Positions 2,375 through 56,172 of a stretch of 58,908 bases of DNA are shown piece by piece. Every line of letters begins with the position of its first letter. Positions within the stretch are counted from its first letter, which is position 1. The notes beneath the pieces are model-generated. The model ran no database searches. It was not told the DNA's origin and saw only the letters and a list, made by a program, of their open reading frames with translations. Position numbers and translations under genes: made by a program. Origin of the DNA: an uncultured Candidatus Saccharibacteria bacterium. Lineage in GTDB: Bacteria; Patescibacteriota; Minisyncoccia; JACPXH01. The DNA is taken from positions 1-58,908 of the forward strand of contig CAYPCM010000003.1 of assembly GCA_964409225.1 (NCBI GenBank), in the 5' to 3' direction.

Positions 2375-2986
2375 TCATAACAACGCTATCCCTACCTGCC
2401 CCACCAACCCCGCCACCACCGGAATCGCGAGGTTGTCGTCCAGGTATCTCGTGCTCATCTCGGCAATCGTGGCGGCTGCGGCCATAACCGGCGCCAGCCA
2501 AAACGTGGGCAAAAGCAGAAACCCGATGATAAGATCTACCGCAAACTCGGCTAAAGCCGCTTCCCAGTTTTTCTCCGGCCGCTCCGGCACGCGAAAACCC
2601 TCTTGGTTGTAACTCACAATGGCTGAAACCGAATCGCCGATTATTGCCATCAAAATTGCGGCATTGGCCACGCGCGGATCAAAAACAGCCAAAGCCACGG
2701 TCATGCCCAAAAAGAGGTGCACCGACGCGGCGACCGTGTGCCGCTCCTTCGCCCGCAGGACTCGTTGAAACGGCACGTGCCAACCCAGTTCCATCCGCGC
2801 AAATTCATAAAGCAAAATGAGCAGCACCAGCGCCACCATCCCAATGAGCGCCGCCTGCCTCGAGTATGTCGCTTCCACCTGCCAAAATGCGTACAGCACC
2901 CCGAAAGCAAGCAGGTGCAAAAGCTTACGGCTCCAAAAGTCGGGGGTTGGCTCTTTGGGTCCGAGTGTCGGAGAATCTTGCATCAT
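2375..2986 (-). CDS. Diacylglycerol/polyprenol (phytol/dolichol) kinase-family membrane protein
   Basis: Multipass hydrophobic protein with RKLLH, GDSVSA, EKNW and DDNL..P motifs typical of SEC59/VTE5/DGK1-like CTP-dependent kinases. Confidence 0.7.
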   Translation of the reverse strand: MMQDSPTLGPKEPTPDFWSRKLLHLLAFGVLYAFWQVEATYSRQAALIGMVALVLLILLYEFARMELGWHVPFQRVLRAKERHTVAASVHLFLGMTVALAVFDPRVANAAILMAIIGDSVSAIVSYNQEGFRVPERPEKNWEAALAEFAVDLIIGFLLLPTFWLAPVMAAAATIAEMSTRYLDDNLAIPVVAGLVGQVGIALL

Positions 2987-3010
2987 ATTAGTTCCGTTTC
3001 CAAGACCAAC

Positions 3011-3877
3011 TTACTCATGTTCGCTCCGAATCTTTCCACCTAATGTCCGCAGCGCCACAAGAAACTTTTCTGCCTCCTCGGGCTTGGGCGGAATGCCGTG
3101 CCATTTGTAGTCAAACTCGATCTCCGGCACGCCCTTGCCCGGAATTGTATGCGCGATGATGCAAGTGGGCTTTTCAAAAATGGCCTTCGCTTCGTTCACC
3201 GCATCCACGATCTCGCGGAAATTGTGGCCGTCAATTTCCAACACATGCCAATTGAACGCTTCGTATTTCGCGCGCAGGGGCTCAAGCGGCATCACGTCTT
3301 CGGTCATGCCGTTTATCTGGATGTTGTTACGGTCAATAATCGAAGTCAAATTGTGCAATTTGTTGCGGCCCGCAAACATGACGCCTTCCCACGTGTTGCC
3401 GGCTTGGTGCTCGGCGTCTGACGTGAGGCAATAAATCCGAATCTGCTTTTTATCCATGGCCGCGGCCAGTGCCATGCCGGCGGCCTGCGACGTGCCGGAA
3501 CCAAGCGGACCAGAAGTTGTTTCAATACCGGGGAGTGATCCGCGGTGCGGATGGCCCTGCAAACGCGTGCCGAACTTGCGCAACGTCATCAGTTCTTCTT
3601 TTTGAAAATATCCGGCGTGCGCGAGGGTTACGTACTGAATGGGACAGATATGGCCGTTCGAAAGAATAAGACGATCGCGTTCCGGCCAGTCTGGATTTTT
3701 CGGGTCATGGTTCAAAATGTGAAAATACATGGCCGTAAAAATGTCAGCCATGCCCAAGGGCCCGGCGGTGTGGCCGGATTTCGCCTCGGCGAGCATGGCG
3801 ATCAGATCCTGGCGGATCGCATTCGCCTTCTCTTCGAGGAACTTTATCTTGTCGTCGTGGAGGTTTTCTTCGGGCAT
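3011..3877 (-). CDS. tkt: Transketolase, N-terminal (ThDP-binding) subunit
   Basis: SGHTAG, SNGH, LQGHP, GPLGSG, SDAEHQAG..N and HTIPGKG motifs. Start at MPEE (3877); the ORF-track extension is repeat-derived. Confidence 0.9.
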   Translation of the reverse strand: MPEENLHDDKIKFLEEKANAIRQDLIAMLAEAKSGHTAGPLGMADIFTAMYFHILNHDPKNPDWPERDRLILSNGHICPIQYVTLAHAGYFQKEELMTLRKFGTRLQGHPHRGSLPGIETTSGPLGSGTSQAAGMALAAAMDKKQIRIYCLTSDAEHQAGNTWEGVMFAGRNKLHNLTSIIDRNNIQINGMTEDVMPLEPLRAKYEAFNWHVLEIDGHNFREIVDAVNEAKAIFEKPTCIIAHTIPGKGVPEIEFDYKWHGIPPKPEEAEKFLVALRTLGGKIRSEHE

Positions 3878-3883
3878 AGCCAA

Positions 3884-3992
3884 AATTTTCAATTTTGAAT
3901 TTTTAATTTCCAATGAATAATGAATATTGAATGGTCGAATTTTGAAACATTCAGTCATTCGAGTTTGATTCGAAATTCAGAATTCAAAATTC
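3884..3992. repeat. 7-nt-periodic AATTTTG/GAATT imperfect inverted-repeat element overlapping the 3' end of rpe
   Basis: Left arm aattttc-aattttg-aattttt-aatttcc-aatgaat-aatgaat; right arm cattcag...gaaattc-agaattc-aaaattc. Confidence 0.75.
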
Positions 3993-4647
3993 GCTCTCTC
4001 GCATCTTCTCGAAACGAGCGCAGCGCTTCTCCAAAATCCTCTGCCCCAAACAACGCCGATCCTGCTATAAGCCGCCCCGCGCCCGCAGCCACGACCTGAC
4101 GGGCGGTACCGACCCGGATGCCACCGTCTACGCTAATGATACCACTAGGCCATTTTTGGCGTAAGGAGACGATTTTGGGGATAACTGACTCATCGAATTT
4201 CTGACCCGCGAATCCGGGGTTAACCGACATGATGAGAACTGTATCAAGCTTGTCGAGATACGGTTCAACCGCCGAAATCGGGGTTTCGGGATTGAGGGCC
4301 AGCCCCACCTGTTTGCCGATCGCTTTCGTTGACTCGACCGTACGCTGCGCTTCGTCTGGCGAATCGAACGCTTCAATATGCCAAATCAAGCGCTCGGCTG
4401 GCGAATCAAACCAAGCGTTACGCACGTTTGGCTTGGCCACCACCATCAAGTGCGCTTCGATCTTGAGTTTCGTTTCGAGCTGGTGGAACAGAAGCGGATC
4501 CTGGATTGTCGTATTCGGCACGAACACGCCATCCATCACGTCCACGTGCAGCCACGCGCAATGCGGCTCGACGGTTTCGATTGCCGCCTTCAGTTCATCG
4601 AGGCTTTTCGGGATGACTGCGGGAATGATTTCGATTGCTTCTGCCAT
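3955..4647 (-). CDS. rpe: Ribulose-phosphate 3-epimerase
   Basis: HVDVMDGVFVPN, EAHLMV, MSVNPGFAGQ and VDGG motifs. Confidence 0.95.
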   Translation of the reverse strand: MAEAIEIIPAVIPKSLDELKAAIETVEPHCAWLHVDVMDGVFVPNTTIQDPLLFHQLETKLKIEAHLMVVAKPNVRNAWFDSPAERLIWHIEAFDSPDEAQRTVESTKAIGKQVGLALNPETPISAVEPYLDKLDTVLIMSVNPGFAGQKFDESVIPKIVSLRQKWPSGIISVDGGIRVGTARQVVAAGAGRLIAGSALFGAEDFGEALRSFREDARERILNSEFRIKLE

Positions 4648-4658
4648 GCATAGATGAC

Positions 4659-4754
4659 GTCATCCTGAACGAAGTGAAGGATCTCGCGCAATAATTGCTC
4701 CCGCCTTGAGATTCTTCGCTTCGGGACGCTGTGCGTCCCTTCGCTCAGAATGAC
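4659..4754. repeat. GTCATCCTGAACGAAG...CTTCGCTCAGAATGAC palindromic miniature element
   Basis: 16-bp terminal arms with two G-U-compatible mismatches; internal GAAGGATCTC/GAGATTCTTC arms and a small GGGACGC-tgt-GCGTCCC hairpin. Same GTCAT...ATGAC termini as 2285-2364. Confidence 0.85.
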
Positions 4755-4760
4755 GTGGCG

Positions 4761-5207
4761 CTAAGACTCAAACTCGGCTATCTTCTCCAGTCGCCGAATA
4801 TGACGCTCCTCGCCCGAAAACGGTGTTGCGAGCCATGCGTCCACCATTTTTTTCGCGTCTTCCTCCGAAAGCCAATCAGACGGAAGCGCGAGCACATTCG
4901 CGTCTTCATGCTCTCGCGACTGTTTCGCCACTGCTTCATTGAAGGCGAGTGCGGATTTCACGCCTTTGAATTTGTTCGCGACCATATCCACTCCGTGGCC
5001 AGACCCGCAAATTAAAATACCCCTATTTTCGCTGGGGTTTTCGGAAACCTTCGCCGCGACGTTCGCGGCGAAATCGACGTAGTCGTCGTTCGGATCTTCG
5101 ACCGTGTTCCCAAGATCTTCAACTTCAATACCGCACTCGGCCAGATGCGCCTTGAGCGATTCTTTCAACTTGAATCCGCGATGATCCGCGCCGAGAAAAA
5201 TTTGCAT
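4761..5207 (-). CDS. rpiB: Ribose-5-phosphate isomerase B
   Basis: GADHRG, DY, CGSGHG..MVANK..GV and A.QSREHEDANVL motifs. Start at MQIFLG (5207). Confidence 0.95.
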   Translation of the reverse strand: MQIFLGADHRGFKLKESLKAHLAECGIEVEDLGNTVEDPNDDYVDFAANVAAKVSENPSENRGILICGSGHGVDMVANKFKGVKSALAFNEAVAKQSREHEDANVLALPSDWLSEEDAKKMVDAWLATPFSGEERHIRRLEKIAEFES

Positions 5208-5233
5208 AGCGAGAAACCAGAAACTGTCTTTGT

Positions 5234-5308
5234 GGGGCCCGAGTGATGTTGCCGAGCAAAGCGTCGCGCAGGCCGACACGTCTTTGCGAGGCAATATCCG
5301 AGGGACCC
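5234..5308. repeat. GC-rich long intergenic hairpin element
   Basis: Nested arm pairs ggggccc/gggaccc, gatgttgcc/ggcaatatc and gcaaag/ctttgc. Confidence 0.6.
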
Positions 5309-5320
5309 ATTGACGACTCT

Positions 5321-6325
5321 TTAGTATTTTGCCGCTCGGATCACGTGTTCAACTAACGTCGTCGTGTACCCCCACTCGTTGTCGTACCACGCGAGGATCT
5401 TGACCAGATCGCCGTCCACAACCCGCGTGAATGAGAGGTCCGCGATCGATGCGTAGGGGTCTTTGATAATGTCGCTTGAGACGAGCGGCTCTTCGCTCAC
5501 CCGGAAGATGTTTTGCCAGCGTGGTTCCCCCGCTGCCTTGCGCAATAGGTCGTTTACCTCTTCGGCCGTTGTGGTACGGCCTGCGAGGAACGTGAGGTCG
5601 GCGATGGAGCCCGCCACCACCGGCACACGCAGCGAGATGCCGGTAAAAAGTTTGTCTAACTCCGTGAGCGCCTTGGCCACGGCTTCCGCCGCGCCGGTCG
5701 AAGAAGGCACGATGTTGACCGCCGCGGCGCGGCCGCGCAGAAAGTCATCGTCCTTGACCGAACCGTCCACCAAGTTCTGCGAGGCGGTATAGCCGTGCAC
5801 CGTGTTCAAGATCGCCTTTTTGACGCCTACGGTCTCCATCATAATGGCAGCCACGGGACTTGCGGCATTTGTGGTGCAAGAAGCATTACAGGTGATAGGG
5901 CCGGCGGCGAACTTGTCTTCGTTAATACCCACAAGCACAGTCGCCACCTCGCCCTTGGCCGGCGCCGAAATCACAACACGCTTCGCACCCGCCTCGAGGT
6001 GAAGCTTGGCTTTATCCGAGTGCGTAAATAAACCAGTTGATTCAACCACGACGTCAACACCCAAATCCTTCCACGGCAACGCCGCGGGATCTTTTTCTGC
6101 CAGCGCCTTAATACGTCTGCCGTCAACTATGAATGCGCCGTCCTCCACCGCAACTTCTCGTTCATAACGGCCATACACCGAATCGAACCGCAGCAAGTAC
6201 GCCAGGTTCTCGCACGAACCCAGATCGTTTACCGCGACCAACTCAATTTCAGGCCGCTCAAAGGCCTGCTTGAAAAAAGCGCGGCCGATTCTGCCGAAAC
6301 CGTTGATTGCAACTCGGATCGCCAT
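5321..6325 (-). CDS. gap: Type I glyceraldehyde-3-phosphate dehydrogenase
   Basis: INGFGRIGR, ASCTTN (catalytic Cys) and WYDNEWGY motifs. Confidence 0.97.
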   Translation of the reverse strand: MAIRVAINGFGRIGRAFFKQAFERPEIELVAVNDLGSCENLAYLLRFDSVYGRYEREVAVEDGAFIVDGRRIKALAEKDPAALPWKDLGVDVVVESTGLFTHSDKAKLHLEAGAKRVVISAPAKGEVATVLVGINEDKFAAGPITCNASCTTNAASPVAAIMMETVGVKKAILNTVHGYTASQNLVDGSVKDDDFLRGRAAAVNIVPSSTGAAEAVAKALTELDKLFTGISLRVPVVAGSIADLTFLAGRTTTAEEVNDLLRKAAGEPRWQNIFRVSEEPLVSSDIIKDPYASIADLSFTRVVDGDLVKILAWYDNEWGYTTTLVEHVIRAAKY

Positions 6326-6374
6326 ATAGAACGTTTACTTACTTCTGGAGCACTTCGCCCCTTCCAAGTCGCCG

Positions 6375-6545
6375 AATGCCAAATGTCAAAGCTCAAATGT
6401 CAACTTCTCGACTCGTCGCTCGGCAAGCTCGCGCCTCGCTCGAAGAATAATTTTAGTATTCGAGCAAGCGAGTCTCTCGATTCGACTCGAGATAGCCTTC
6501 ACGAGCGCGTCGAGAATTTGGCATTTGGATTTTGACATTTGAACT
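6375..6545. repeat. Nested palindromic element: 7-nt-periodic outer arms enclosing a TTCTCGAC...GTCGAGAA element
   Basis: Outer left arm aatgcca-aatgtca-aagctca-aatgtca; outer right arm tttggca-tttggat-tttgaca-tttgaac. Inner perfect 8-bp arms at 6405-6412 and 6509-6516. Confidence 0.8.
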
Positions 6546-6549
6546 TACG

Positions 6550-7515
6550 CTAATGTGGAAGCTTGTTCAAGTAACTGACCGTCGCCAACAAGGCCGCGAT
6601 CCCCTGCCCCACGGCAATGCCGATTTGTTTAAACGGAATATCGGTGACATCGCCAGCGGCGTAAAACCCGGGTAAATTGGTTTCGCCTATGCAGCTTGTT
6701 TTGATCTCGCCGAACTTATTTTTTTCGACTGCGGCCGGCGCAGAAGAACTGTTCGGTACCATGCCAATATGCACAAACACGCCCTCGGCTTCAATAGTTC
6801 TTGTTTCACCGCTTGCGTCTTTGTATTCAACGGCGCTGACGAATTTGTCGCCGATGATACCTGTGGTCTGCGCGCCGTAAATTATTTCGACATTCGGCAG
6901 TTTTACGAGTTTATCAATCAGCACCTGCTCGCCCTTGAACGCCGGGTTTTTATTGATCACGAACACTTTGGAGGCGATCCCTGAAAGCATGATAGCCGAT
7001 TCAAGAGCAGAGTTGCCGCCGCCTATCGTCACCACGGTTTTCTTGGGGAAAAGCGGGCCGTCGCAAACAGTGCAATAGGAAAGCCCTTTGGCGCGAAGTT
7101 CACGCTCGCCGGGCAAACCCAACTCACGAGGATGAACTCCGGTCGCAAAAATAACCGTTCGCGCCTGATACTGCTTTGCTTCGCCATCCTCGCGGGTTAC
7201 AACCTTATCGCCGGCCTTAAGCACGCCGTCGGCGCGAACGTTGACACTATAGTGACCTTCAGCTGGCTCGATAGAAACAACGTCTTCATCCAGTTTCATC
7301 CGGACACTGTTCTTCGCGAGGTGCTCGCGGAATTTTTCGGTCAGTTCAATGCCGTCCGTGTGCGGAAAGCCCGGATAGTTTTCGATCTCACCCGAGGTGG
7401 CAACTTCGCCGCCAAAATCTTTCGAAAGCAGAACAAAAGACAGATTCCGCCTCGCCGCATAGATAGATGCGGCAACGCCGGCGGCCGAACCCCCAATGAT
7501 GATAGTGTCGAACAT
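6550..7515 (-). CDS. trxB: Thioredoxin reductase (TrxB/AhpF C-terminal-like)
   Basis: FAD-binding GGSAAG, redox-active CTVCD, NAD(P)H-binding GGGNSA and AAGDVT motifs. Confidence 0.9.
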   Translation of the reverse strand: MFDTIIIGGSAAGVAASIYAARRNLSFVLLSKDFGGEVATSGEIENYPGFPHTDGIELTEKFREHLAKNSVRMKLDEDVVSIEPAEGHYSVNVRADGVLKAGDKVVTREDGEAKQYQARTVIFATGVHPRELGLPGERELRAKGLSYCTVCDGPLFPKKTVVTIGGGNSALESAIMLSGIASKVFVINKNPAFKGEQVLIDKLVKLPNVEIIYGAQTTGIIGDKFVSAVEYKDASGETRTIEAEGVFVHIGMVPNSSSAPAAVEKNKFGEIKTSCIGETNLPGFYAAGDVTDIPFKQIGIAVGQGIAALLATVSYLNKLPH

Positions 7516-7531
7516 GTCTCGATATATCGAC

Positions 7532-7771
7532 CTAATTATTCAGCCCCAAGGCGCGCGCAATTCTCGGTTTGTCAAACCCAACTATAATTTGGCCGTCAAT
7601 GTCTATGACCGGCACGCCGATCTGGCCGGACTTCGCTACCATTTCGTCAAGCATCTTCTGGTCTGCCGCGACGTCAATGTCGCGAAATGTAATTCGGTTG
7701 GCCTTCAAATACTCCCGAGCCATGTGGCAATAGGGGCAGGAAGGCGTGGAATAGACGATAACATTTGCCAT
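7532..7771 (-). CDS. Glutaredoxin-like protein (NrdH/YruB type)
   Basis: 79 aa; CPYC active site and GVPVI motif; directly upstream of trxB. Confidence 0.9.
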   Translation of the reverse strand: MANVIVYSTPSCPYCHMAREYLKANRITFRDIDVAADQKMLDEMVAKSGQIGVPVIDIDGQIIVGFDKPRIARALGLNN

Positions 7772-7779
7772 ACCTTTTC

Positions 7780-7788
7780 ATCTTATCA
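7780..7788 (-). promoter_or_regulatory. Putative extended -10 promoter for grx-trxB
   Basis: Minus strand reads TGA-TAAGAT, 8 nt before the grx ATG; no good -35. Confidence 0.4.
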
Positions 7789-7794
7789 CAGTCG

Positions 7795-8571
7795 TCAAGT
7801 CGGCGAAATACGGGGCCGCAGCAGACGACTGATTAAGGGGTTCAGAAGATTAATTACCAAAAGCGATCCGCTCAGACCGATACGGGGCAACGCTGCACCG
7901 AAAGCCGCAAACAAACCGCCAATCATACCGTAGCCGACCTGGGCGCGAGGAAAAGCGGGGGTAGTCATCGGTTCGATAAGCATAACCGAAACAAAAAATA
8001 ACGGCAGCGTACGCACAGCGCCCAAGACGGCGTGCGCCTGTGGCGCCTTCACCACCGCAATGAACATCCACGCGGCCGCAAATGCCGCGACCACAGGCCA
8101 TTTGCGCGTGCGCGTGATGATGAATGCTCCGAGTACGGCCACATACGCCGGCACAACGTCACCCCACCAGCCCTCAAGCGCACCGGCAAAGATAACCGTG
8201 GCCGCAAGGCCGAGTGCCGCGGGATTCAAGAGCTGCCGGCCGCGCCAACGGATAACGTGTTTGGACAGAATGCCCATGGCCGCAGCCGCCGCAACCTGCC
8301 AAAGCGGCGAAGCAGGCGCCAGCACAATGGCTACGATGAGTCCGGTTATTAAGCCGCTCTGCGGCAGGTACAGAACGCGCCTGCGCCACCAGGCCAGCGC
8401 CAGATCCAAGCCCCCGCCCACTGTAAGCCCCACCGCCACCTGCGGCCAGGTCTCAGCGAATAGCTTGGCTGAACTAAACCAAGCCGCAAGTACAATTACC
8501 GCCAAAATCCACAGCAGGTGGACCTTAATACCGAGCTGCCAAAAGCGCCGCGCAAAATCCACCACGCTCAT
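7795..8571 (-). CDS. RnfD/NqrB-family integral membrane protein (stand-alone)
   Basis: SGLITGLIVA, ILSKHVIR..G..L.NPAA.G and LIEPMTTP motifs; about 8-9 transmembrane segments. Confidence 0.75.
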   Translation of the reverse strand: MSVVDFARRFWQLGIKVHLLWILAVIVLAAWFSSAKLFAETWPQVAVGLTVGGGLDLALAWWRRRVLYLPQSGLITGLIVAIVLAPASPLWQVAAAAAMGILSKHVIRWRGRQLLNPAALGLAATVIFAGALEGWWGDVVPAYVAVLGAFIITRTRKWPVVAAFAAAWMFIAVVKAPQAHAVLGAVRTLPLFFVSVMLIEPMTTPAFPRAQVGYGMIGGLFAAFGAALPRIGLSGSLLVINLLNPLISRLLRPRISPT

Positions 8572-9889: not shown

Positions 9890-12151
9890 CTACTTCTTAG
9901 CCGCGGTAGAACTCGCCTTAATGGCTTCGAGAAAGCGTTCGGCATCCTCGCGCAAACGCGGCTCGAGCTCGAGAGCTCGACTAAGTGCTTGTTCGGCCTT
10001 TTCAAACTCGCCAATTTCCTTGAGCACCGCCGCGAGCCGCGCCCAAGCGGTCGAATCGGCAGCGGTGACGCTGGTGAGGGCCAAGTATTTTTCAAGAATT
10101 TCAGCCATGCCTCGGTAATCTTTAATTTGACTCAAAACGAATAAATACCGGTTCAAACGCGCCGGGCTGTGCAAGGTGAAGCCCAACTCCTGGGCAAGTT
10201 GAAACTCCGCTTGCATGCGACCCAGATCTCCGGCAAAAGCATAGGCCGCGCCCAAGTTCCAATGCGCTTCGCCCACGTGCGGGGCCAGCGCAACCGCGCG
10301 CTCGATAAGTTCAGCGCCCTCGACGCCCCGACCTTGAGCAATTCGAGCTTGAGCCATGGCGTAGTAGACATGCGGCCGCGTGGGAGAGAGCCGACGCATC
10401 TCCTCGCCCAGAGCGACGGCGCGTTCGTATCGGGCCGGGTCGAATTCTGCGCCAATGTTCAAAAGCTCCATGAGTTGCAAACGATACTGGGCATCGTTTG
10501 GCACCTCACGCACGCTTGCTTCCATTGCGGTGATTGCCGCTTCGATGGCGTGGCGCCGATCGGGAGCTCCTTTCGGGACACCTCCGGCAAACTGCGCGAA
10601 CTGCGAACGCGTCTCGAAACGCTGATAGTCGCCGTAGCCGAGCACCTCCTCGAAGAGCGCGGTGGCACTCCCTACCACGTTCGCCTGTCCGGCCTTGATC
10701 GCCGTCGTGAGCGTAAGGTTTGCCGCAGCCGGACGGAATACAAAGACGATGAGTGCCGTGACCAGCACAACCCCGGCTGCCCCACCCAGCCACCCGGGGA
10801 TCCGACGCGGCGGCCGATCGGGTGCTGACCGAAGGTCCATGTCGCGGCGCGCCAGCCACGCGAGTACAAGCATGAACGGCAGGTAGCTTGCAAGCGTGTC
10901 GAACACGAACAGATTCTGGAGGAGGTATGCCGCCAGAAGTCCCCCGATGATCAATGCCAGCCAGCGATCAGCCGGGTTCGCTCGCGCCACACGCCTGAGA
11001 GTAAACGCTGCGGCGGCGAACATCGCGACATATGCCGCAAGCCCCGTAAGGCCGCTCGTGGTGCCCGCGTCGAAGACGATATTGTGCGCCCGATCAAACC
11101 AAATCTGCGAGCCCTCGTCGCGATAGATGGCGGTTGGAAAATGTTTGTTGAAGGGAATGTTGTAATTCTCGTATCCCCAACCAAACAGTAACCTCTCTTG
11201 CCAGCCGGCCCATGATGCGCGCCACGCCGCAAGGCGCGATTGGGTGGTGATATCGGCAGCCGAAATCGACACGAGCCGGCGCAACACCGCGTTTTCACGC
11301 ACCCATAGTTCCTCGCGACTTGCCCATACTATGCCAGTCAAAATTGCGAGCCCCGCAAGTACGCCGAGTGCGCCGTAACGGACTGAACGCCGAGGCGCTT
11401 TAAACAACGCGCAAAAAAGCAACGCGACTGAAACCACACCGAAAGCCAAAATGGCGCCGCGGGTGGCTGTGCCTAAAAGTGCCGCAAAAAGCATCAGCCA
11501 CGCCGCGCCGTACATTATCCGCCGCCATAATTCTGACCTTCTTATGAAAAGATAAGCTAAAAACGCAAGCTGGAACAAAAGGTACGCCGCAAAAAAACTC
11601 GGGTTGCCCACTGTGCTTGAAAACCGGCTACCGGTAGTGCTGGAAGCAACGAAAAAGGCACCCGCCGCTTGAGCAAAGGCCAAAAGCGTAATGAGCACTG
11701 CCGCGCCCACCGACACCTCCATCACGCGCCACCAATCTTTTTCACGCCTGTTCAAACTCGCGAGCATGACCACGAAAAGCGCAAGGTGCAACAGCATAAG
11801 CACTCCTTCGCCGCGTTCGACATTGCCCCAGAAGCTCCGCTCGGGATTGACGCCGAAGATGCTGGTCGTGATAACGACTACAAGATACGCCCCGCCTGTC
11901 CACCATAGGAGCGACCGGCGCGGACGGTACGCGGGATACCGGATGATGACAAGCAGGTATAAGAACGCCGCTACCTCAATGAGCAACCGGACGTAGAGGG
12001 TCTTCGTCGTGATGAACGGAAAAAAGAAGCGGCTGTTGACGAACAGCGGCGCCACGAATACTGCCGCAAGCAACCAATGCACAAATTTCTTAAGCCCCGG
12101 CTCGGCCATGACTGGGGCTGTCTCCCAATGTTGGCGGTGGTATTTAGCCAT
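9890..12151 (-). CDS. O-antigen ligase/PglL-like (Wzy_C) membrane protein with C-terminal TPR repeats
   Basis: About 12 TMs; STVGNPSFFAAY, TATRGA, SRL..W..SW and GWGYENY...DRAHN motifs; TPR-like C-terminus. Start at MAKYH (12151), overlapping the upstream GT stop. Confidence 0.85.
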   Translation of the reverse strand: MAKYHRQHWETAPVMAEPGLKKFVHWLLAAVFVAPLFVNSRFFFPFITTKTLYVRLLIEVAAFLYLLVIIRYPAYRPRRSLLWWTGGAYLVVVITTSIFGVNPERSFWGNVERGEGVLMLLHLALFVVMLASLNRREKDWWRVMEVSVGAAVLITLLAFAQAAGAFFVASSTTGSRFSSTVGNPSFFAAYLLFQLAFLAYLFIRRSELWRRIMYGAAWLMLFAALLGTATRGAILAFGVVSVALLFCALFKAPRRSVRYGALGVLAGLAILTGIVWASREELWVRENAVLRRLVSISAADITTQSRLAAWRASWAGWQERLLFGWGYENYNIPFNKHFPTAIYRDEGSQIWFDRAHNIVFDAGTTSGLTGLAAYVAMFAAAAFTLRRVARANPADRWLALIIGGLLAAYLLQNLFVFDTLASYLPFMLVLAWLARRDMDLRSAPDRPPRRIPGWLGGAAGVVLVTALIVFVFRPAAANLTLTTAIKAGQANVVGSATALFEEVLGYGDYQRFETRSQFAQFAGGVPKGAPDRRHAIEAAITAMEASVREVPNDAQYRLQLMELLNIGAEFDPARYERAVALGEEMRRLSPTRPHVYYAMAQARIAQGRGVEGAELIERAVALAPHVGEAHWNLGAAYAFAGDLGRMQAEFQLAQELGFTLHSPARLNRYLFVLSQIKDYRGMAEILEKYLALTSVTAADSTAWARLAAVLKEIGEFEKAEQALSRALELEPRLREDAERFLEAIKASSTAAKK

Positions 12152-52277: not shown

Positions 52278-55109
52278 TCAGTCAATTTCCCGCAGCTCCA
52301 CGATGGGTCCGAGACGATCAAAGGAGAATATCGCCCAAACTGGCTGAAGATCGTTCCCTAAGAAATCACGCGAGGCGCCATCCTGCCGACCGACAAATGC
52401 TTTGAGCAGCCGTGAACGGTCTCGCAGGGTTTTCGTCGCTGGGGTGATTTCGATCAACGACTGATACTGCACGAGTGCGAACTTCCGACCCGGCTGCTGG
52501 AGAAACTGCGCGAGGGCCGAGGAAGCGGCGGCATCGCTCAAGAAGTGAAGATTGGTAAGTTCGTAGCGCGGCTGGCGGGACTGCGGCCAGGACGTTTCCG
52601 GCACAGCCAAAAGCGCTCGATCAAAAGAGCGCAGCGACGTGGGATCAAGAGCTGCCTGGGCCTCGAGACTCGCGCGGGAGGGAGTAAGGCGCACTCCGCG
52701 CAGCAAACTTACGATGTTCGCTCCGGCCGGTACATACGCCTCAATATACTGTTTGGCGAGGAGTCGCGTGTCAGTTCGCAAGAGCAAAAAATCGAATCGC
52801 ACGAGGATCGCCGCCGCGAACGCTACGGGAATCACAAACGCTGGCCAGGTCACTACCGGCCATCGCTCGAGCAGGTAATCAATGAATGCCGCTGCGGCCA
52901 AGATCAAAACCGGCAACAGAAATAATGCGTAGCGAACCTCCTGATGCATAAAGAGATAAAAAGCCAGCAGGTACGCCACCGTAAATACTGCCAAGAATAC
53001 CACTATCCTCCGATCACGCCAGAAAAGATACCCGAGACCGGCAAGGCCGGCCACCAAAATGAGGGGTTCGTATGCCCAAAGCACCTGGGCGTAGTAGCCG
53101 AAGACAGCGAAGAACCCACCAACCGATTTTACCGCGGCAGCGGCACCGGCCTCACGCACGAGGATGCGAGAAAACGATTGGTGCAGCACAATCGAAAACG
53201 CACTGAGAGCGATTGCTGCCGTGACCGCCAGCCACAAGTTGGCCGACCGCAGCCGCGCCGACCATGCCTCGCGTCCCGAAGTGACGTGCGCCGTCAACAC
53301 AAAAAGAAGTCCCAAGACCGACACGTAGTCAATCCCGAACCCAAGGCCGGCCAACAGCCCGGCCGCAAGGTACTGGTGACGCAGGGCGCGCGGTGCAAGA
53401 CCTTGACGCAGGCCACTGCGGATTTTAACGCTCATCCACAGTCCCAAAAGCAGTACCAATAGCGATGGCGGCCAGTGCCGAGCGAAATGCGAAAGGCTTG
53501 CGGCAAAGAAACTCGTGGCGAGGAGGGCAGCCGCGATCAGTCCTGCCCGACGATTGAAAAGATCGCGGCCGATGAAGTACAGAACGCCCACCGAAACCGT
53601 GCCCAGCACGACCGACATAAACCGCGCCGCCAGCCACACCACGGTCGGATCAAGTGCAATCTCTTGCCGAAACTCCGCCAAGCTTTGAGCACCAGAAAAT
53701 AAATACTGCAGCCCGAGCACAGGCAGAAATAGGACGAGTTCGGCGTAGTATATAAGCGGCGGCAGGTAGAAGGGCGCAAAGGCCGGGCCGGCCAAAGCGG
53801 GCACAAGTTGTTTGAGCTCTAACATCTTGAGCGCTCCGCCCACGAACGTTTCTTCATCGCCCACGAGCCGGTACGGGAGGCCGTACGAGATTCCGACGAC
53901 GCGCAGAAGGAATGCAGCTACAACGATGACAAGGAGAAGCGCGCTCGTCGGATTTTTGATTTTTGATTTGTATTTTTGCTCTTTGATTTTTGATTTTTGA
54001 TTTTTCAAAGCCGCTGCTTGCTCCACGAACCCTACGAGCCGCTCGCCAATCCGTACCGTGGTAAATTCTCGCAGAAACAGCTTGTGTCCCGCCCGTGCGA
54101 TCCGATCGCGCAGTACCGGATCGTCGCGCAGCCGCCGAATGGCTGCCGCGAGCGCAGCTGGATCTTCCGACGGCACCAACAGCGCGTCAACTCCGTCGGT
54201 AAACACCTCGCGGCTGGCTGGAGAGTCCTGGGTAATGAGGGGCTTGGCGCAGGCAATCGCTTCGTAGGCCTTGTTGGGAACCACGCGCGCGCCTTTGGCA
54301 GTGGCGCCAAAAATGCCGAGACACACGTCTGCTTTAACCATTCGTTCGGGCAACTCCTCATACGGCACCGACTCTTCAAAACGAACATTTTGAAGATCCC
54401 AGCTAGCCGCGAGACGGCGCATCTCGCCGTACTGCTGGCCGCGACCTATGATGCTGAAACGCACCGATTCACGGGCGAGTTCCCGCGCCGCGCCCAGAAT
54501 AACACGCACTCCTTGCAAAGGAATAAAATGGCCGTGAAAGTGAACAGTGAAATCGCGCTGCGGCGCGATTTCACTGTTCGTCGCCTGCCCGGGCGCTGAA
54601 AACGCCGTAGGCCCTGATAGCGGCTGCATAATCGTCTCCACGCTTCCGACGGGCAATACACCTATTCGATCTGACCTCAAGCGGAACGCGCGGGTGTAGT
54701 ATTCGCGCTGCGCTTCGGTATCCACCAACACAAAATTCGCCAGATGCATCGAGAAAAAATCCAGCAAAAATCGCCACCACGCGCCGAACCCATGGGGCCG
54801 CACCACCGCGCGATCGTAAACATCAGAATCATATAGGGATGTAAACGCGTCAAAAACAATCGGCTTGCGGCTAATCAAGCGGGCAAGCAACATCGCGGTC
54901 TGGCCGGGAAAACAAACCACCATGACATCGTATTCGTCGCGCACAACGCGGTGTTTCTTGACGAGGTGCCAGTACTTGCGCCAGCCGGGCGTTCGGTCTT
55001 GAACCATCATCACGCGCCAGCCGACGCACTCAAGCCCAAGCCGAATCATGCGACTCCTCGAGTAACCGGGGCTGAAGATACCGAACATGCAGGCGGTTCG
55101 CTCACGCAT
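52278..55109 (-). CDS. Fusion ORF: GT4 domain + repeat-encoded linker + ArnT/PMT-like GT-C membrane domain
   Basis: First ~365 aa are GT-B (HGHFIPLQG, VPNKAYEAIA). Linker KNQKSKIKEQKYKSKIKN. Then a TM, GLPYRLVGDEE loop, ARFMSV.LG and about 10 more TMs. Confidence 0.75.
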   Translation of the reverse strand: MRERTACMFGIFSPGYSRSRMIRLGLECVGWRVMMVQDRTPGWRKYWHLVKKHRVVRDEYDVMVVCFPGQTAMLLARLISRKPIVFDAFTSLYDSDVYDRAVVRPHGFGAWWRFLLDFFSMHLANFVLVDTEAQREYYTRAFRLRSDRIGVLPVGSVETIMQPLSGPTAFSAPGQATNSEIAPQRDFTVHFHGHFIPLQGVRVILGAARELARESVRFSIIGRGQQYGEMRRLAASWDLQNVRFEESVPYEELPERMVKADVCLGIFGATAKGARVVPNKAYEAIACAKPLITQDSPASREVFTDGVDALLVPSEDPAALAAAIRRLRDDPVLRDRIARAGHKLFLREFTTVRIGERLVGFVEQAAALKNQKSKIKEQKYKSKIKNPTSALLLVIVVAAFLLRVVGISYGLPYRLVGDEETFVGGALKMLELKQLVPALAGPAFAPFYLPPLIYYAELVLFLPVLGLQYLFSGAQSLAEFRQEIALDPTVVWLAARFMSVVLGTVSVGVLYFIGRDLFNRRAGLIAAALLATSFFAASLSHFARHWPPSLLVLLLGLWMSVKIRSGLRQGLAPRALRHQYLAAGLLAGLGFGIDYVSVLGLLFVLTAHVTSGREAWSARLRSANLWLAVTAAIALSAFSIVLHQSFSRILVREAGAAAAVKSVGGFFAVFGYYAQVLWAYEPLILVAGLAGLGYLFWRDRRIVVFLAVFTVAYLLAFYLFMHQEVRYALFLLPVLILAAAAFIDYLLERWPVVTWPAFVIPVAFAAAILVRFDFLLLRTDTRLLAKQYIEAYVPAGANIVSLLRGVRLTPSRASLEAQAALDPTSLRSFDRALLAVPETSWPQSRQPRYELTNLHFLSDAAASSALAQFLQQPGRKFALVQYQSLIEITPATKTLRDRSRLLKAFVGRQDGASRDFLGNDLQPVWAIFSFDRLGPIVELREID
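53952..54006. repeat. Tandem heptamer array (ATTTTTG)n, about 8 imperfect units, inside a coding frame
   Basis: atttttg atttttg atttgt atttttg ctctttg atttttg atttttg atttttc. Confidence 0.85.
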
Positions 55110-56172
55110 GGTTGAACGCGGAAATGATTCGATCGGCGAGTGCCGAAAGATTGTGCTCTTTGACTACAATCTCCCGTAGCGCCTGACCGAGTTCGCGGCG
55201 TTCCTCTGGCGCCATCCGCCGGAGCTGCTCAAGCCGATCAGCAAGCTCATAGGCGTTGTCTTTCTCAAACGTAAGCAGATGCGTCCAAGGAGAGAGCATC
55301 TGCCTGAATGCCTCGGAAGAACTAACTACTGGCAGCCCGCACGCCATGGCTTCGAGCACTACTTTGTCCATGCTGCCGGTTTCGGAACTATGCACGAGAA
55401 CGTCTGCTTCCTGATACGAACGCACAATCCTATCATGCGCGACTCCGCCCAAAAACTGCACCGCCACCTCAACCCCGCGGTCGCGCGCCAAGCGCCTTAG
55501 TTTTTCGCGATACGACCCCTGCCCGGCCAGACCCGGATCGCCGATGATGGTTAGCGTAACGCCTTCTCGCTCTTCCGGTGCCATAACGGCAAGCGCGGCT
55601 ATGGGCAGTTCATAACGCTTGACCGGCGAAAGGCGTCCGACGGCAATCATTCGAAACCGCCGGCCAGAAGCCCTCTCCGACAAAATGTCCGCAGCCGGCC
55701 TAAACTCCTCCGTATCAATGCCGTGCCCCACCACGCGCGTTTTCTGGCTGGGGAGACGAAAACTTTCGGGCGAAGCCGTAAGCACAACGTCGGCTAGGCG
55801 ATGCATAAGCCGAAGTTTGAAATCAACGGATTTATGCGTGTACCAAGACACGAGCCGTCGCCGCCTCATCTTCGCCCACGGCGCAGCCAAAATCGTATAG
55901 ATCGGGTTTTGGTGACAGAACACGCCGTCTGCCTCGCGCGTAAGCTGCCAACCAAAACGCATGAACCCGAGCAGCTGGCGGAACTTTCCGGCGCCGGCTT
56001 CTTTGCCGAGCGAGAAAATTCTCACATTTGACGGCGCCACCCAGGTCCGGCGCTCCTGACAAATCACATCGAGACGCTGCACGCGTTCGGCCAACGCCGC
56101 AATCCAACGCACGGTAAAACCGGCGAGGGTGTCGGTGGGGTCAATTTTTCGCGTGATCATTAGGAGACGCAT
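55102..56172 (-). CDS. Glycosyltransferase family 4
   Basis: VGRLSPVK and GSMDKVVLEAMACG motifs. Confidence 0.92.
   Translation of the reverse strand: MRLLMITRKIDPTDTLAGFTVRWIAALAERVQRLDVICQERRTWVAPSNVRIFSLGKEAGAGKFRQLLGFMRFGWQLTREADGVFCHQNPIYTILAAPWAKMRRRRLVSWYTHKSVDFKLRLMHRLADVVLTASPESFRLPSQKTRVVGHGIDTEEFRPAADILSERASGRRFRMIAVGRLSPVKRYELPIAALAVMAPEEREGVTLTIIGDPGLAGQGSYREKLRRLARDRGVEVAVQFLGGVAHDRIVRSYQEADVLVHSSETGSMDKVVLEAMACGLPVVSSSEAFRQMLSPWTHLLTFEKDNAYELADRLEQLRRMAPEERRELGQALREIVVKEHNLSALADRIISAFNHA

Follow-up and report, generated by a model that had tools for sequence, protein, structure and literature searches.

A dispersed heptamer repeat encodes the linker of a predicted GT4–GT-C glycosyltransferase fusion in an uncultured Parcubacteria bacterium

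Small repeats, among them the Rickettsia palindromic elements (RPEs), are known to occur in frame inside open reading frames (ORFs) (reviewed in PMC10969869). Heptameric repeats that are over-represented in their genomes have been described in Xanthomonas (GGGAATC) and Nostoc (GGGGAYT) (PMC4692102), as well as in the Beggiatoaceae (TAACTGA) (PMC4679880), and simple sequence repeats (SSRs) drive the phase variation of surface-glycan genes in Haemophilus influenzae (PMC2651432) and Campylobacter (PMC8437040). In the literature, nothing specific was found on heptanucleotide repeats in Patescibacteria or on fusions of GT-B and GT-C glycosyltransferases. The gene described here lies in a 58,908-nt stretch of DNA, the window of this analysis (contig CAYPCM010000003.1, assembly GCA_964409225.1), which belongs to the 883-kb metagenome-assembled genome (G000) of an uncultured member of the Parcubacteria, an ultra-small bacterium of the Candidate Phyla Radiation (CPR). 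On the minus strand, the ORF listing gives a single stop-free frame of 943 codons (52278-55109), in which a GT4-type glycosyltransferase (GT) runs through a repeat-encoded linker into a GT-C membrane glycosyltransferase. The probable explanation is a real and recent gene fusion: a coupled GT4/GT-C gene pair would have received a repeat module in the N-terminus of the GT-C, and a duplication of the four nucleotides AGCA would then have joined the two frames.

The original prediction, made from the sequence alone, held that a complete GT-B domain runs without a stop into an ArnT/PMT-like domain, and both the open frame and the Pfam matches in each half bear this out. In the N-terminal half, the GT4-type models Glycos_transf_1, Glyco_trans_1_4, and Glyco_trans_1_2 span amino acids (aa) 182-357, all above their curated cut-offs. 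The first two lie at aa 182-343 with E-values of 1e-17 to 5e-20, PF00534 reaching 64.5 bits (cut-off 26.4) and PF13692 72.7 bits (cut-off 27), and NCBIfam adds sub-threshold similarity only, to exopolysaccharide (EPS)-type GT4 enzymes and archaeal STT3. An AlphaFold2 (AF2) model of the fused protein was built on a 30-sequence alignment. It presents aa 1-370 as two Rossmann halves in a GT-B fold, with a predicted local distance difference test (pLDDT) score above 90. The Foldseek matches of this half are MshA, GlgM, BshA, PimB', and PglA (E about 1e-12, target TM-scores 0.70-0.77), and stand-alone GT4 homologues of about 350 aa number more than 1,200. By its sequence and its predicted fold, the N-terminal domain is assigned to the GT4 glycosyltransferases of GT-B fold.

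The C-terminal half carries PMT_2 at aa 493-639, with 34.9 bits against a cut-off of 26.1, and the same model is matched in all 27 of the 27 aligned GT-C homologues. The domain is assigned by these profile matches to the PMT_2-like GT-C superfamily. Against the Protein Data Bank (PDB), a sequence profile of this half gives a weak match to yeast Pmt1 only (E 0.064), and Foldseek returned no solved structure for it, the top 50 matches all being to the GT4 half. AF2 predicts about 14 helices over aa 387-777 and, C-terminal to them, an alpha/beta domain (aa 780-943), with lower confidence than in the GT4 half because homologues are few. GT-C enzymes have their defining acidic motif in the first outer loop, shortly after the first transmembrane (TM) helix, and their N-termini are cytoplasmic (PMC6801728). 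In the fused protein, D418-E419 follows the first TM helix (TM1) by about 10 residues; in the GT-C alignment (A3), the E is invariant and the D is at least 90% conserved. The linker, with 8 lysines in 18 residues, stands directly before TM1. By the positive-inside rule and by the family rule for GT-C enzymes, the linker and the GT-C N-terminus would be cytoplasmic, a placement that fits because the lysine-rich stretch comes just before the helix. The earlier view that the topology of the fusion is compatible is thus upheld by inference from the lysine-rich linker ahead of TM1 and the conserved D418-E419 just after it.

The public record of the protein (P0002) is 923 aa long and begins at Met21 of the frame used here. 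The true start is at 55109 rather than at Met21, since the 20 N-terminal residues are conserved in relatives (the congener G001 and the fused homologue P0003, described below) and contain the first beta-strand of the AF2 model (aa 5-10). From this start, the gene shares 8 nt with the GT gene that precedes it (55102-56172).

Tandem Repeats Finder (TRF) reports a period-7 array of 55 nt at the joint of the two halves (8.0 copies, 83% matches, score 82), the top-scoring period-7 array both of the window and of the whole genome. On the coding strand, the array reads (AAAAATC)3 AAAGAGC AAAAATAC AAATC (AAAAATC)2 and is translated into the 18-aa peptide KNQKSKIKEQKYKSKIKN. The join had been described earlier as (ATTTTTG)~8, and both the copy number and the peptide agree with that description. 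Just ahead of the array, an in-frame TTG (codon 368, 54008-54006) is overlapped by an out-of-frame TGA (54007-54005), a detail that the original prediction had picked out and that is present in the sequence. There is no in-frame ATG, GTG, or TTG between the module and TM1, so the module would have been translated even before the fusion. The RNA fold at 53920-54040 is not significant (z-score +0.32), and no promoter-like or terminator-like site was found at the joint.

The linker is one copy of a dispersed, mostly intergenic heptamer module. When the 56-nt stretch that contains the array (53951-54006) was compared by BLAST to the whole genome, it matched in 36 non-overlapping places. An alignment of 21 copies defines a module of about 53 nt with the consensus AAAATCAAAAATCAAAAATCAAAAAGCAAAAATACAAATCAAAAATCAAAAAT and an irregular core, GCAAAAATACAAATCAAAA, which the linker has in common with about 20 other copies. 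The irregular 8-nt and 5-nt units (AAAAATAC and AAATC) are present in most of these copies, which argues that the irregularities of the linker were inherited from the dispersed family rather than made by local slippage. The genome contains 215 period-7 arrays, and (AAAAATC)3, when up to 2 mismatches are allowed, has 51 matches compared to 0 for a reversed control pattern. The family is patchy and lineage-specific in its distribution: against the 51 matches in G000 there are 39 in G024, a genome of a different family, and 0 in G001, which is of the same genus, and it is absent from the genome G038. The original prediction had proposed that a selfish intergenic repeat became a peptide linker. 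The linker is indeed a translated copy of a mostly intergenic repeat, recognizable by the shared irregular core; the label "selfish" found no support.

Where the copies lie was counted with a crude ORF-based gene model in which about 9% of the genome is intergenic. By this model, 23 of the 39 strict (AAAAATC)n arrays are intergenic and 14 are intragenic in the sense orientation. Two were scored antisense; the array on contig C51 reads sense in a PheS-like frame, and the two antisense calls probably reflect errors of the crude model. Repeats of AAAAATC are stop-free in every frame and encode a cyclic K-N-Q-K-S-K-I, while GATTTTT has a TGA in all three frames within 21 nt, and this is why the intragenic copies are sense only. 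In-frame copies (...KNQKSKIKN...) are found in ValRS, ProRS, AspRS, and TopA, as confirmed by Pfam. Others stand in proteins recognized by eye, which we take to be LepA, SecA, RecG, TsaD, PolA, PNPase, GatA, LeuRS, and PheS. Elsewhere in the window, the arrays had been called intergenic at four places; those at 1134, 6375, and 57479 clearly are, and the one at 3884, in the spacer between rpe and transketolase, is formally open in frame.

How the module relates to the repeats described in other bacteria can now be considered. Like RPEs, it is a dispersed, mostly non-coding repeat that also stands in frame in many unrelated housekeeping genes, where it adds a peptide at permissive loops or linkers. 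Unlike the RPE, a palindrome of about 100-150 bp, it is made of about 53 nt of tandem heptamers; it encodes a low-complexity stretch of K, N, Q, S, and I rather than a conserved structured peptide, and it forms the tether of a two-gene fusion, not a loop within one gene. The array was rejected as an RPE, being a direct tandem array rather than a palindrome and having no significant fold in its linker copy. The linker repeat is one of the over-represented heptamer repeats of bacteria, a loosely described class with which it shares the 7-nt unit, many copies per genome, a strong intergenic preference, and lineage-specific units. Unlike the heptamers of Xanthomonas and Nostoc, its units are A/T-rich instead of G-rich, with no G-quadruplex. 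It also differs from heptameric SSRs in its fixed irregular internal structure and in its many translated copies, which are copies of a module rather than locally grown microsatellites.

In the relatives, the two components are separate. Comparison of orthologues, fused or split, had been suggested as a check on the fusion, and it shows separate, adjacent genes in three genomes. In G001, a GT4 of 355 aa (ending ...RIGERLKPFVERFL*) and a GT-C of 546 aa (starting MTRERISRVLIAILIGAF...) overlap by ATGA. Two genomes from two other families also have the split genes side by side, with a 4-nt overlap (ATGA) in G024 and a 20-nt gap in G038. The closest metagenomic GT-C, P0004, has a GT4 gene immediately upstream; around GT-C homologues that are more distant, the neighbouring genes differ but form similar sugar clusters. 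Judged by gene order and sequence, this is a Rosetta-stone gene fusion, its components separate and adjacent in relatives and joined in one stop-free ORF here.

The architecture is rare. Among 401 genomes of the class, G000 alone gives a full-length match, and among the best 150 of 33,725 matches in 1.84 billion representative proteins, the sole protein with both GT4 and GT-C is the query's own cluster. A common family of fused homologues with an unrelated, non-repeat linker, which the original prediction had named as evidence that would overturn it, appeared in neither set. Scans of genome and metagenome contigs for more fused or split close relatives gave only distant stand-alone GT4 genes, with 37-43% identity. 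Among the other long matches are fusions of GT4 with GT4 or of GT2 with GT4.

Fusions of other enzymes to a GT-C were also seen. The genome G072 encodes a GT2+PMT_2 fusion of 822 aa (L030:1489-3957), and class-I methyltransferases are fused to PMT_2-type GT-C domains in P0189 (914 aa) and P0249 (906 aa). In P0249, Pfam finds methyltransferase models only, and the GT-C half is shown by homology to the query. From these sequences, the N-terminus of GT-C appears to be a recurrent fusion point. The present fusion is like these proteins, and like the "PimA-like" fusion of a PF03706 membrane domain with a GT4, in that a cytoplasmic enzyme of a sugar pathway is tethered to the cytoplasmic N-terminus of a membrane glycosyltransferase of the same glycan pathway. 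It is unlike them in that GT4+PMT_2 is found, within the 401 class genomes and the best 150 of the 33,725 matches, only in this lineage and in P0003, and in that its linker is derived from a repeat.

A second assembly contains the same fusion. A 67-kb contig of GCA_016186535.1 encodes an identical 923-aa fused product; over 8,214 nt, it aligns to the window with 2 substitutions and 0 gaps. The fusion is found in another species as well: P0003 is a homologue of 942 aa, 61% identical, and is the same in two assemblies that differ by 5 single-nucleotide polymorphisms (SNPs) in 9.8 kb. Its linker (contig L013; unit AAAATTC) is made of (TCAAAAT)x5, a hairpin-like segment of 32 nt, and TTCAAAATTCAAAAAG, and the hairpin-like segment contains an out-of-frame ATGACC that resembles the ATGACC start in G001. 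The linkers of P0003 and G000 differ in their unit and in their position relative to the relic NTGA. In the GT4 domain, G000 groups with P0003 (76% versus 69% identity); in the downstream GT4 gene, P0003 groups with G001 (81% versus 68-71%); and in the GT-C domain, the three lineages are equidistant at about 54%. One origin followed by turnover of the linker and two independent fusions are both possible from these sequences. One could go further and consider, as a tentative idea more doubtful than not, that the heptamer modules of CPR bacteria are ready-made linkers that repeatedly fuse NTGA-coupled neighbours, and that GT4 and GT-C were fused twice independently at the same junction. The role of ready-made linker is suggested because one strand of the modules has no stop codons and the peptides encoded there are flexible and positively charged. 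Two events would be expected on this idea because the units differ (AAAAATC versus AAAATTC), because their positions relative to the relic NTGA differ, and because no consistent sister relationship is seen.

Two minor observations concern contig L013. The linker there contains a small hairpin, CCCCGAACAAATTGCTTCGCAATGTAACGGGG (11108-11139), but the fold of the linker as a whole is not significant (z-score -0.77). On the other strand, the hairpin ends in CCCCGTTA...CGGGG, similar to the CCCCGTTAGAA family of palindromic elements (a miniature inverted-repeat transposable element, or MITE, family), of which the G000 genome has 38 termini. The hairpin could be a diverged, ends-only remnant of this family, a lead taken from the shared ends only. 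On the same contig, a segment with a GT4 gene pair (381 + 384 aa) is duplicated in tandem (2971-5408 and 5834-8271), and both copies have the heptamer arrays of the spacer between the paired genes (identical TRF rows at 4115-4244 and 6978-7107).

The way in which the fusion came about may still be legible at the joint. A perfect tandem, AGCA/AGCA (54022-54015), directly precedes the relic TTGA. When one AGCA is deleted in silico, the GT4 ends ...RIGERLVGFVEQRL* at the relic TGA, with the same length after RIGERL as in G001, and the TTG becomes an overlapping start, giving the NTGA arrangement found in G001 and G024. The N-terminus of the GT-C exceeds that of G001 by 15 codons and, as with other in-frame insertions of the module, the extra length is a multiple of three. 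The 4-nt duplication, rather than the repeat, probably made the fusion, because removal of one copy restores both the GT4 length of G001 and the NTGA overlap. In the order of events that we infer, the ancestor would have carried, within a cell-surface glycan cluster, a gene for a cytoplasmic GT4 and then one for a GT-C, the translation of the two being coupled through an NTGA overlap. A copy of the (AAAAATC)n module, about 53 nt long, would have been placed directly after the start codon of the GT-C and translated as a lysine-rich cytoplasmic segment ahead of TM1. AGCA would then have become AGCAAGCA in the last codons of the GT4, putting the TGA out of frame and bringing the TTG start into frame. 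The product predicted from the ORF is one protein of 943 aa that consists of the GT4, an 18-aa repeat-encoded tether, and the GT-C. In such a protein, the GT4 would stay on the cytoplasmic face and the catalytic loop of the GT-C (D418-E419) would face outward. The main effect of the fusion would be 1:1 stoichiometry and co-localization of two enzymes that already cooperated.

Several points weigh against this account. The two agreeing assemblies are perhaps not fully independent, and the phylogenetic signal among the three lineages, as read from pairwise identities, conflicts. The pLDDT of the AF2 model is below 50 over aa 380-461, which covers the linker, and the conformation and the docking of the domains are not defined by the model. 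Also, a perfect AGCAAGCA would be expected by chance at roughly 5% within so short a stretch. An unlikely alternative is that insertion of the repeat itself fused the genes. The module, on reaching the NTGA junction, would have removed or shifted the stop in one step, and the AGCA tandem would be a coincidence. The conserved anchors (FVE ... AF) of G000 and G001 differ by 46 nt net, or 1 mod 3, which is the amount that joins the frames; P0003 also has heptamer arrays exactly at the junction, and heptamer spacers, such as that between rpe and tkt, are stop-free on the sense strand. Yet the relic TTGA is intact just upstream of the module, removal of 4 nt returns the GT4 C-terminus to the length seen in G001, and the additional 15 codons at the GT-C N-terminus are a multiple of three. 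The fusion could also be a neutral and recent accident, in which internal initiation at TTG368 still supplies the functional GT-C on its own and the GT4 merely reads through. The TTG start codon has been kept in frame, the GT-C of G001 has no strong Shine-Dalgarno (SD) sequence and relies on coupling, and the undecayed TTGA suggests a young event. This explanation is nonetheless improbable, more so than the one-step insertion: termination-reinitiation coupling is lost when translation no longer stops at the TGA, the joint has neither a promoter-like site nor a good SD (the closest GGAG stops 13 nt short of the TTG), and in the fused ORF of P0003 the old ATG is out of frame, so the GT-C there is obtainable only as a fusion.

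In favour of a sequence error, the TTGA overlap is present and the genome is metagenome-assembled. The original prediction had cautioned that a 1-nt indel could separate the genes. On this reading, the GT4 would stop at TGA (54005-54007), the GT-C would start at TTG (54008), and an assembly or consensus error near the AT-rich repeat would have joined the two. The second assembly weakens this caution, having the same sequence with 2 SNPs and no gap. The change of frame can be placed at a 4-nt duplication within a GC-rich stretch rather than at a homopolymer, and the P0003 species is fused in two assemblies. Furthermore, about 15-20 essential genes keep their frame across the same arrays, which indicates that the assembly handles heptamer repeats correctly; an artefact is, then, very improbable. 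The chance is just as slight that the heptamer tract is a switch for phase variation, as had also been raised, in which gain or loss of a unit would switch the GT-C half between its on and off states. Phase variation typically targets surface-glycan genes. A 7-nt unit does shift the frame, and a simulated gain or loss of one unit brings stops at aa 421 and 395, respectively, with loss of the GT-C domain; heptanucleotide tracts also drive phase variation in some pathogens (PMC2651432). Like a contingency locus, the gene has a tandem repeat whose unit is not a multiple of three inside a glycosyltransferase. Unlike one, its tract is short and imperfect, the longest perfect run being 3 units, and it has irregular units (AAAGAGC, AAAAATAC, AAATC) inherited from a dispersed family that is also present in essential genes such as those for ValRS and TopA, where switching would be lethal. 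Tract length is identical between the two assemblies of each fused lineage, and a scan of JGI metagenomes with both flanks and a gap of 41-69 nt gave 0 matches to tract-length variants. The locus was accordingly rejected as an SSR contingency locus, for which a long perfect tract and length polymorphism would be expected.

The fusion is a clear but not unprecedented case in which a multi-domain protein has been built by repeats and small frameshifts. What is specific to it is the GT-B+GT-C architecture, the legible stop/start relic with a candidate causal 4-nt duplication, and the second fused species with a different repeat linker. Its intermediates can still be read, from the relic TTGA and the candidate duplication to the split congener and a linker that is traceable to its repeat family. 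A cytoplasmic GT-B that is covalently tethered to a GT-C membrane transferase, as predicted here, is a very rare architecture. The tethering argues that both enzymes would serve the same surface-glycan pathway, and the protein may offer a natural construct for the coupling of cytoplasmic and extracytoplasmic steps. The heptamer repeats of CPR genomes contribute coding sequence and are more than spacer DNA. For annotation, this carries a warning: an AT-rich heptamer tract within a CPR gene usually does code for protein and should not be taken for a frameshift error. The features of the locus are collected in Table 1.

Table 1. Features of the fused GT4–GT-C gene (positions in the window, with residues of the predicted protein)
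Feature	Position	Strand	Basis
Fused GT4-GT-C ORF, 943 aa	52278..55109	minus	open frame
GT4 (GT-B fold) domain, aa 1-367	54009..55109	minus	Pfam, AF2, Foldseek
Pfam Glycos_transf_1 match	54081-54566	minus	
Perfect 4-nt tandem AGCA/AGCA, candidate frameshifting duplication	54015..54022	minus	sequence
Relic TTGA stop/start overlap	54005..54008	minus	sequence; ATGA in G001 and G024 at the equivalent junction
Heptamer-repeat module encoding linker K369-N386 (KNQKSKIKEQKYKSKIKN)	53951..54005	minus	TRF
GT-C (PMT_2-type) membrane domain and C-terminal soluble domain, aa 387-943	52278..53950	minus	Pfam, AF2
TM1 of GT-C domain	about aa 388-407		
D418-E419 motif	53853-53858	minus	alignment
Pfam PMT_2 match	53193-53633	minus	

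The housekeeping genes with in-frame arrays, about 20 in number, are spread over contigs C1, C2, C4, C5, C7, C11, C17, C18, C28, C31, C32, and C51, and several of the arrays fall at inter-domain junctions, for example, between the core and the anticodon domain of ProRS and between the Toprim domain and the core of TopA. Within the window, the spacer at 3878-3995 (minus strand) is built of heptamers, with an rpe-like ORF (3955-4647) on one side and a transketolase-N ORF (3011-3958) on the other. Formally, the two ORFs share an ATGA, and ILNSEFRIKLE would be the end of the rpe product; the pair is one stop codon short of a repeat-linked fusion. On contig C4 (48420-51386, minus strand), a frame of 989 codons encodes a polytopic membrane region followed by C-terminal TPR repeats, with Pfam matches in the TPR part only. 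A EIKNQKSKIKNP module separates its two membrane blocks, and this frame may be another repeat-bearing junction.

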